This document shows positions 21,659-23,373 of a stretch of DNA of 32,162 nt, piece after piece. The position numbers and the translations under genes are program-made. Origin of the DNA: Promethearchaeota archaeon (GTDB lineage: Archaea; Asgardarchaeota; Lokiarchaeia; Sigyniarchaeales; SOKP01); the NCBI GenBank assembly GCA_048940925.1, contig JBHLOC010000051.1, forward strand, positions 1,395-33,556, written 5' to 3'. Each line of letters starts with the position of its first letter. Within the stretch, counting starts at the first letter, position 1. Under the pieces are notes generated by a model. It was not told where the DNA came from and ran no database searches. It worked only from the letters and a program-made list of their open reading frames with translations.

Positions 21659-22729
21659 CTAATTTAAAATTTCATGTAATTCTTTTACTATTTTATTTGT
21701 TTTCTTATCCTTTATCCAATACCTAATTTTAGAAGACCTGAGAAATTCTTGGATTTTTTCATTTAATTCATTTAATTTTATTTTATCTTCTTTAGATAAT
21801 TGAGGTACCTTTTCTTCAATTTTCTTTTTTACTTTTTTAATCTCTTCTTCTATGAGTGGAATTTTAATTTGTTCTTTTTCAAGAATTAATCTTTTTCTGA
21901 GGATTTCTTTAATACTTTTTGTCCATCCTCTAATCCAGGGGTAATTTCCAGGTTTTTTAGGGTCATTAATTTCAATATCATTTCTTTTAACAATTATTAA
22001 ATCATCTGGGCAGGAGTTTTCACAGGCTCCACAATAAAAACACTCATCTTCTTTGCATGCAATTTTTCCAAATTTTTTAACATCTTCTGCACTTTCGGGA
22101 ATAAAAAAAGATTCTGTAGGGCATATATAAACACATGCTTTACAACCTTGAGGATCACATTTGTGAAGCATATTCTTTTTTATAATTACTTCTCCCTTTA
22201 TAGGTGATTCAATATGAAAACATTGTGTTGGACACTCTTTTTGAATCTTAAAATATTCCTTCACTTGATTTCTTTCTCTAACAGTTAGACAAAGTTGACA
22301 CACTTCATTTTTGGAGTCCTCAATACATTTATCTAGATCAATTTTATAAAATTTACCAATCGAGGGGTATTCATTTAAATCAATTTGTTCTTCTGGAGTA
22401 ATGTTTTCATGAAAAGCGTCATTAGGACAGACAATAGCACATAACATACAATAACAACATTTTTCATAATCAATCAATATTTTTGGATTACTTTCTTCTA
22501 GTATTTTTTGAGCGATTTCTGGAATTGGTCCAAGCTCAATTGCTTCAGTTGGGCATACAAATTTACATAATGAACAACCTATGCATTTTTCTATGTCATA
22601 AACAAGCTTTTTATCAACATTTTGAAATTTCCATTTAAGGATTAATTGTTCTGGCGTGATTTCTATATCTTTTTCTATTTCTTCTTTATCTTCTTTATGA
22701 ACAATATTTTCTGGTGATGAGTCTGAGAT
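21659..22729 (-). CDS. FwdF-like polyferredoxin (formylmethanofuran dehydrogenase subunit F-like), about 356 aa, with charged helical C-terminus
   Basis: The frame extends 84 codons upstream of the track start and includes CIGCSLCKFVCPTEAIELGP, followed by CCYCMLCAIVCP, CKACVYICP and CFYCGACENSCP. Inferred start is ATC at 22729. Confidence 0.8.
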   Translation of the reverse strand: MSDSSPENIVHKEDKEEIEKDIEITPEQLILKWKFQNVDKKLVYDIEKCIGCSLCKFVCPTEAIELGPIPEIAQKILEESNPKILIDYEKCCYCMLCAIVCPNDAFHENITPEEQIDLNEYPSIGKFYKIDLDKCIEDSKNEVCQLCLTVRERNQVKEYFKIQKECPTQCFHIESPIKGEVIIKKNMLHKCDPQGCKACVYICPTESFFIPESAEDVKKFGKIACKEDECFYCGACENSCPDDLIIVKRNDIEINDPKKPGNYPWIRGWTKSIKEILRKRLILEKEQIKIPLIEEEIKKVKKKIEEKVPQLSKEDKIKLNELNEKIQEFLRSSKIRYWIKDKKTNKIVKELHEILN

Positions 22730-22990
22730 TTTTTATCAGCCACCTTATAATTAATTATGTTGAAAGCTATTATAAGACTTAAAAAAAATGCCCATTAAAA
22801 ATGATTTTCTCTAATTTTGTAAATATCTAATTTAAAAAAAACTTTCTATTAATAATTTAAAATATAACTATGACAAAAAAGCTGAAATACATAAACATAT
22901 ATATTACTTTTTCTGTTGATGATTTGCAGAATTATATTTAGTAATTTATACTAGGGGTTTTATATGAATTACTAATGCTGGAGGCGTTCT

Positions 22991-23373
22991 ATAATAATAA
23001 GGATTTTTATTGCTGAGGATGACAGAGATCTTCAAAGATTGTATGAATTAATTTTAGAAATGTCGGGATTTCAAGTAATAGGTATTGCAAGTAATGGGAA
23101 TGAAGCAATAGATATGTTTATATCCTTCTCCAATAAACCAGATATTATAATACTGGATTAGAGGATGCCAATCAAGAATGGAATCGATACTTTAAGAGAA
23201 ATAATAGAATTTGATGGCAATTCAAAAATTATTTTTGCGAGCGCAGATAAGACAATAAAAGAAAGAGCCTATCATTATGGAGCAATAAGATTTTGGATAA
23301 ACCATTTACCCATAATAAATTAATATCCACACTTAATAAATGCATGATTATTTCGAATTCTTTAAAAGTTTAA
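22991..23373 (+). pseudogene. Single-domain response regulator (CheY-like receiver) pseudogene
   Basis: IRIFIAEDD...KPDIIILD*RMPIKNG...IIFASAD...GAIRF/LDKPF. There is an in-frame TAG at 23159-23161, a frameshift in the TTTT at 23291-23294, and ATA in the start position 6 nt after GGAGG. Confidence 0.88.

Follow-up and report, generated by a model that had tools for sequence, protein, structure and literature searches.

The evidence assembled here suggests that a polyferredoxin gene of an Asgard archaeon is translated as a protein of 356 residues from an AUC codon at 22729-22727 on the minus strand (with a probability of roughly 0.85), and that initiation at ATT, ATC or ATA behind a Shine-Dalgarno (SD) element is common in the same genome, with roughly 115 such starts. 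The single polyferredoxin gene is one more member of a class; what appears unusual is the class, which takes in about 3% of genes, that of the initiation factor aIF1 included. The window, meaning the whole analysed stretch of 32,162 nucleotides, belongs to an uncultured Promethearchaeota (Loki-type Asgard) archaeon with a 4.8-Mb assembly of 29.6% G+C. Its features at this locus are:

21659..22729, minus strand: coding sequence of the FwdF-like polyferredoxin, with an ATC start, 356 codons and then a stop (translation, Pfam Fer4 families, identical 356-aa public product)
22475..22477, minus strand: first canonical start, a TTG at codon 86 of the open frame, internal to the gene (ORF listing)
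22550..22585, minus strand: first CxxCxxCxxxCP [4Fe-4S] motif, CIGCSLCKFVCP, upstream of any canonical start and invariant in orthologues
22727..22729, minus strand: proposed start codon ATC (AUC), an Ile codon at the same position in 41 distinct orthologues
22729..22734, minus strand: A6 run that had been suspected of a missing base; 0 differences and no indels in contigs of runs X1, X5, X6 and X8
22733..22738, minus strand: in-frame stops TGA and TAA, which close the frame two codons before the ATC (sequence)
22736..22746, minus strand: SD-like element AAGGTGGCTGA, which can pair with the 16S 3' tail GGAUCACCUCCU (predicted duplex -9.1 kcal/mol)
22741..22743, minus strand: out-of-frame GTG that belongs to the SD-like element and does not serve as a start; GTA in L002/L022, and its frame closes after 22 codons
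22768..22776, minus strand: TATA-like CTTATAATA, approximately 40 bases upstream of the ATC, a putative promoter read from the sequence
22980-23340, plus strand: receiver gene divergent to the ferredoxin gene, with intact orthologues and a broken copy in the window

Along the minus strand, AAGGTGG (22746-22740) is followed by TGA (22738-22736), TAA (22735-22733), AAA and ATC (22729-22727), the region reading ...TTATAAGGTGGCTGATAAAAAATCTCAGAC... The polyferredoxin frame is open for 357 codons, from 22732 to 21662, begins AAA ATC TCA GAC and ends in a stop codon at 21661-21659. The first-pass annotation had claimed that this FwdF-like gene has no ATG, GTG or TTG before its first Fe-S motif, and all of its coordinates were found to be correct, with the motif at 22585-22550 and the TTG at 22477. 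Orthologues carry a TTTATATT-type box at a distance similar to that of the window's TATA-like CTTATAATA, which may be the promoter of the gene.

Repeated CxxCxxCxxxCP motifs matched by Fer4 models place the product among the polyferredoxins. Pfam Fer4 (PF00037) matched three stretches of it with 61.6 bits and PF12838 (Fer4_7 dicluster) matched residues 49-106 of the open frame (P0001) with 62.5 bits, both above cut-off. The best NCBIfam match was FwdF (NF042909), the polyferredoxin subunit of tungsten formylmethanofuran dehydrogenase, at 129 bits and so below the cut-off of 375, and no fwd genes were found among the neighbours, which are a receiver pseudogene, an ArsR-type HTH gene, a CDC48 ATPase and unknowns. 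Because of this score and these neighbours the product is named a FwdF-like polyferredoxin and not FwdF. Several CxxCxxCxxxCP motifs are common to both proteins, but the window protein departs from FwdF in its score, in the lack of a fwd gene cluster and in a Lys- and Glu-rich C-terminal tail of approximately 100 residues. As a separate observation, contigs of runs X5 and X8 contain a joint that skips 140 bases between two similar Fe-S motifs (window 22467-22608); with a shorter side of only 20 letters, the joint probably reflects a repeat or a contig from another organism.

The length of the product depends on whether the open stretch before TTG 22477 is coding. When the 61 codons from the PEQL motif to the TTG-equivalent position were compared between the window and 12 distinct orthologues, differences at codon positions 1, 2 and 3 numbered 84, 38 and 309, synonymous codon changes exceeded non-synonymous ones (238 versus 127), and 35 of the 61 residues were invariant, those of the entire Fe-S motif among them. 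Such a pattern exceeds chance and indicates that the stretch is translated. Translation from TTG 22477, or from an ATG ten codons later, with the upstream stretch left untranslated, is what a gene caller limited to ATG, GTG and TTG would produce, and the public product of the nearest relative (P0103, 263 aa) does begin at the downstream ATG. However, the 85 codons upstream of the TTG are open in every orthologue, changes in them are mostly at third positions, and their CIGCSLCK..CP motif is invariant. In two-cluster ferredoxin domains each cluster takes cysteines from both motifs, and a start at the TTG would leave half of such a domain; the Pfam dicluster domain, at residues 49-106, would not be complete without the codons upstream of the TTG, an argument that rests on Pfam. 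A start at the TTG is thus considered highly improbable. Even less credible is the view that the gene is a pseudogene in decay, its start codon lost. The receiver gene next to it has indeed become a pseudogene in this genome, but the polyferredoxin frame is intact across 356 codons, and 32 of 41 orthologues share the lack of a canonical start while clearly evolving under purifying selection.

The position of the start was judged from orthologues. The first-pass annotation had favoured ATC 22729 behind the SD, with the product MSDSSPEN, and comparison of ortholog start codons agreed with it. Genome and related-locus searches yielded 41 distinct same-genus orthologues whose 5' end could be used. 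In these the position of ATC 22729 is ATT in 35, ATC in 5 and ATA in 1, though it should be noted that these are kin and that such counts, like the codon-choice P values, overstate independence. In all 41 the Ile codon is followed by Ser, Thr or Pro and lies 22-26 codons before the PEQL motif. No in-frame canonical start is found anywhere upstream in the open frame in 32 of the 41, and 15 have an in-frame stop at a distance of just 1-3 codons before the Ile codon. In the window no canonical start could give the conserved N-terminus. The choice of codon is also unlike that of ordinary Ile codons, because ATA occupies the start position in 1 of 41 genes but accounts for 33% of Ile codons elsewhere in these genes; at two conserved Ile positions inside the gene ATA predominates (34/41 and 30/39).

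The start has not stayed at one place in every relative. An in-frame GTG or ATG lies 4-5 codons upstream of the conserved Ile codon in L012, L015 and L019, and an ATG lies three codons downstream of it in the subclade L020, L059 and L042, so the start of this gene appears to have moved more than once. The ATG of that subclade means that the start is not fixed at ATT, ATC or ATA in every species. In other families of the order, the orthologous gene starts with an ATG preceded by a GAGGAG-type SD, and GGGAGG ATG AAA ATT (MKISQT) is found in the genus member that diverges most. The genus has probably lost an ancestral ATG that lay two codons further upstream, with initiation then settling on ATT or ATC. 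Initiation at some other near-cognate codon further downstream, for instance the ATT at codon 10 or an ATA, ATC or ACG before PEQL, was also considered; several such codons are present in the acidic, length-variable N-terminal stretch, and the subclade with the downstream ATG would fit a shifted start. However, the first Ile codon is the only one that keeps its position, favours ATT and follows an SD in nearly all orthologues, and a downstream near-cognate start is regarded as unlikely. Since further ATT, ATA and ATC codons do follow in this stretch, the exact placement at ATC 22729 is by conservation and the SD only.

The genome's 16S rRNA ends ...GGATCACCTCCT, and its predicted duplex with the SD-like element of the window (-9.1 kcal/mol) can be compared with background codons, of which about 4% reach -8 or below. 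A predicted duplex of -6 or below precedes the start codon in 18 of 20 orthologues versus 10.7% of background codons, and SD-like elements (GGAGG, GAGGG, GGTGG, GTGAT) precede it nearly everywhere. The SD in the window, AAGGTGG, is at a working distance. Its core AGGTG lies 10 bases from the ATC, where the genomic optimum is 6-7 and the range for ATG is 4-11, and a second register, CTGAT, gives a spacing of 6. A mechanism can be proposed in which a short leader with the SD-like AAGGUGG(CUGA) would pair with the 3' tail of 16S rRNA, this pairing would place the AUC in the P site, and initiator Met-tRNA (anticodon CAU) would be accepted despite the third-position mismatch, giving a product that would begin with Met as MSDSSPEN. 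We infer the pairing, the use of initiator tRNA and the first residue, as well as the efficiency of initiation at AUC. The AUC start would be one instance of a genome-wide habit in which AUU, AUA or AUC (rarely ACG) is read behind an SD in approximately 3% of genes.

The first-pass annotation had offered a second explanation for the absence of a standard start, namely that translation begins at GTG 22743 (MADKKISD) and either slips by -1 on the A run or appears to do so because the assembly is short of one A. The GTG does lie in the frame that one extra A would join, and in three orthologues an in-frame GTG or ATG gives MEEKKIS or MEKKIS, which resembles MADKKIS. However, Logan contigs (not raw reads) covering 22705-22758, from four runs representing four samples and two studies, all have A6 and not A7 at 22729-22734, with no indel, and two of the four samples are not marked as a possible source. 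Additionally, in L002 (the same as L022; 91-92% identical), one of the two closest relatives, GTA replaces the GTG while A6 and ATC are unchanged, and A6 is also found in L021. Most orthologues contain no out-of-frame start to slip from and have stops directly upstream of the ATT, and in the GTG frame the A run reads T AAA AAA, out of X XXY YYZ phase. A start at the GTG with slippage or a missing base is thus very improbable, and on these contigs and orthologues the frameshift or assembly-error reading appears largely refuted and is rejected. Programmed -1 ribosomal frameshifting was tried as a class and rejected as well, since it calls for a conserved 0-frame start and an in-phase slippery heptamer and the locus offers GTA in L002/L022 and T AAA AAA.

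Two further genes of the window had been named as starting at such codons. For cdhD an ATT start had been claimed, and this was supported: among 20 orthologues the codon at 5773-5771 (minus strand) is ATT in 17, ATA in 2 and ATG in 1. Two codons ahead of it is the TGA of a GTGA element, or else a TAA immediately precedes it; the one orthologue with ATG here amounts to a natural substitution and identifies the position as the start. The claim of an ATA start for the receiver gene was only partly borne out. In 28 distinct orthologues the gene reads (GGTGAT or GGAGG)...ATA AAA ACA ATT TTT ATT GCT GAG GAT GAT, and no conserved canonical start was found in those 28, which agrees with an ATA start. 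The window copy, however, has a TAG at 23159-23161 where orthologues carry Tyr (LDYRMP), and its C-terminal KPF motif, near 23295, is in another frame. Because of the in-frame TAG and the change of frame it is a pseudogene and taken alone is poor evidence for an ATA start.

The suggestion that SD-guided initiation at ATT, ATC and ATA is routine in this lineage was upheld genome-wide. From the 4.8-Mb assembly, 3,905 non-overlapping ORFs of at least 100 codons were taken. The first canonical start lies at least 40 codons after the upstream stop in 117 of them, when geometric decay predicts about 23, and nearly all of the upstream stretches of those 117 score as coding. Codons found 4-9 bases from a perfect 5-base SD core (from GGAGGTGATC) were then compared with those at a control spacing of 12-17. 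ATT, ATC and ATA together occurred 173 times at SD spacing versus 49 at control spacing; the corresponding numbers were 312 versus 19 for ATG, 86 versus 5 for TTG, 28 versus 6 for GTG and 536 versus 472 for other sense codons (ATG, TTG, GTG and ACG set aside). When scaled by the background ratio, this gives approximately 115 extra ATT, ATC or ATA starts, equal to about 3% of ORFs and, among all starts preceded by a perfect SD core, to about one in five. This number is a floor because weaker SDs are left uncounted.

A test free of any gene set gave the same picture. At 108 places where GGTGA and then six bases precede a codon that opens at least 120 codons, this codon was ATG in 19, TTG in 16, GTG in 3, ATT in 17, ATA in 18, ATC in 8 and ACG in 3, compared with 1 AAT, 0 TAT, 2 TTT and 0 ACT among look-alike controls, and frames at 12, 15 and 18 bases from GGTGA had ordinary codon usage. 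ACG was itself enriched at SD spacing (7 versus 0 with perfect cores, and the 3 of 108 above); by these counts it is a minor fourth near-cognate start. Other versions of the analysis were less informative. The share of codon types with a predicted duplex of -6 kcal/mol or below is a test of little power, because only a minority of genes use an SD and the set is contaminated by shadow ORFs; a position-weight version of the SD test gave a modest signal (7.0% versus 3.7%), and a raw trinucleotide tally after all SD-like words mainly reflected coding periodicity. It was the comparisons by spacing that decided the matter. Candidates with ATT, ATC or ATA starts include actin, aIF1, ribosomal protein L10e, GPN-loop and small GTPases, universal stress proteins, a BcrAD/BadFG-type ATPase (ITAGIDCGS) and an alcohol dehydrogenase (IKAVIF). 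Judged by their conserved N-terminal motifs, the named candidates are beyond doubt.

Inspection of aIF1 and the initiator tRNA, which had been proposed as a check, was consistent with this. In the main aIF1 copy of the host genome (G000:C31:2212-2526; L067/L102) the CPxC zinc motif comes before any canonical start, the earliest of which is at codon 56 of 107. In 25 of 25 distinct orthologues of the genus the gene reads GGTTGTGATAA-GAG-AGT-ATT-AAA-GAC with the ATT invariant, and at 34 further aIF1 loci across the class (relatives L103-L169) the start is ATT, ATC or ATA, TTG or GTG, and never ATG. The initiator-like tRNA is a normal one, with anticodon CAT, A1 and a GGG anticodon stem. A second aIF1 paralogue (G000:C58:42821-43135; L068/L131) shares 62% identity with the main copy; a perfect GAGGTGAT element lies within its 5' end, and its start is ambiguous between GTG and ATT. 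A second copy is also found in G007, G054 and G064. Aragorn called 34 tRNAs in G000 when introns were allowed and 13 without intron handling, so that many tRNA genes appear to be intron-bearing or unassembled. Its calls include a tRNA-Sec with anticodon TCA.

Starts of this type are known in bacteria, where infC (IF3) and pcnB of E. coli are initiated at AUU behind an SD. The genes described here resemble them in that a near-cognate AUH would be read as a start when the SD places it in the P site, and aIF1, with its ATT in 25 of 25 orthologues, resembles infC in that the gene of a factor that proofreads start codons has such a codon itself. They differ in number, with approximately 115 genes here versus two or three per bacterial genome, and in machinery, which here is archaeal and of eukaryotic type (aIF1, aIF1A and aIF2). 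The AUU start of infC is autoregulated by IF3, and in eukaryotes eIF1 is autoregulated through a weak start context. Eukaryotes scan, and their near-cognate starts are mostly CUG or starts in a poor Kozak context, whereas here the codon is set by the SD and is ATT, ATC or ATA. As with eIF1, the mRNA of the stringency factor itself has a weak start, and aIF1 never starts at ATG across the sampled class. Since this holds throughout the sampled Lokiarchaeia-level genomes, aIF1 may autoregulate through its weak start. The resemblance to infC and eIF1 is a lead and not a test. It is possible, although on balance doubtful, that start-codon stringency is relaxed across the lineage and is tied to such autoregulation, with aIF1 setting the cellular level of near-cognate initiation. 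If this is true, about 3% of genes, ribosomal proteins and actin among them, would depend on the level of near-cognate initiation that aIF1 sets.

The first-pass annotation had also predicted systematic mis-annotation of N-termini, and this was supported in part. Public relatives of the polyferredoxin are annotated inconsistently, with lengths of 263-392 aa (P0003-P0121). In 45 of 119 of them the N-terminus has at most 35 residues before the first Fe-S motif, 7 lack the motif, and some start at an internal Ile codon just before it (MKKCIGC...). The mis-annotation is not universal, however, because the public protein collection already holds a 356-aa product for the window's contig that starts MSDSSPEN from the ATC; some gene caller has therefore already used the ATC. 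The correct polyferredoxin would be 356 aa long with all of its Fe-S motifs, whereas callers restricted to ATG, GTG and TTG give 272 aa and miss the first cluster.

A comparable case is the Asgard tubulin Kari AtubA, for which a 'rare ATT start codon' was proposed when the deposited product was found to be too short and an upstream ATT at a plausible distance from a ribosome-binding site restored the conserved N-terminus (PMC13394414). Both cases involve an Asgard gene with a too-short product in public annotations and a near-cognate start behind a ribosome-binding site. However, Kari AtubA is a single gene from another Asgard lineage, Kariarchaeaceae, with no orthologue or genome-wide test, whereas here the codon is conserved in the genus and belongs to a genome-wide class. 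In the literature searched, no systematic account of ATT, ATC or ATA starts in Asgard or other archaea was found, only the AtubA case.

The data suggest that about one gene in thirty, and about one in five of those preceded by a strong SD, starts at ATT, ATC or ATA in this genome, including those for aIF1, actin and L10e. The protein catalogues of Loki-type Asgard archaea are therefore systematically truncated at the N-terminus, which affects their use in phylogeny, structure prediction and expression. More broadly, reliance on near-cognate starts appears possible in archaea whose initiation factors are of eukaryotic type, and to an extent that is undescribed in the literature searched.
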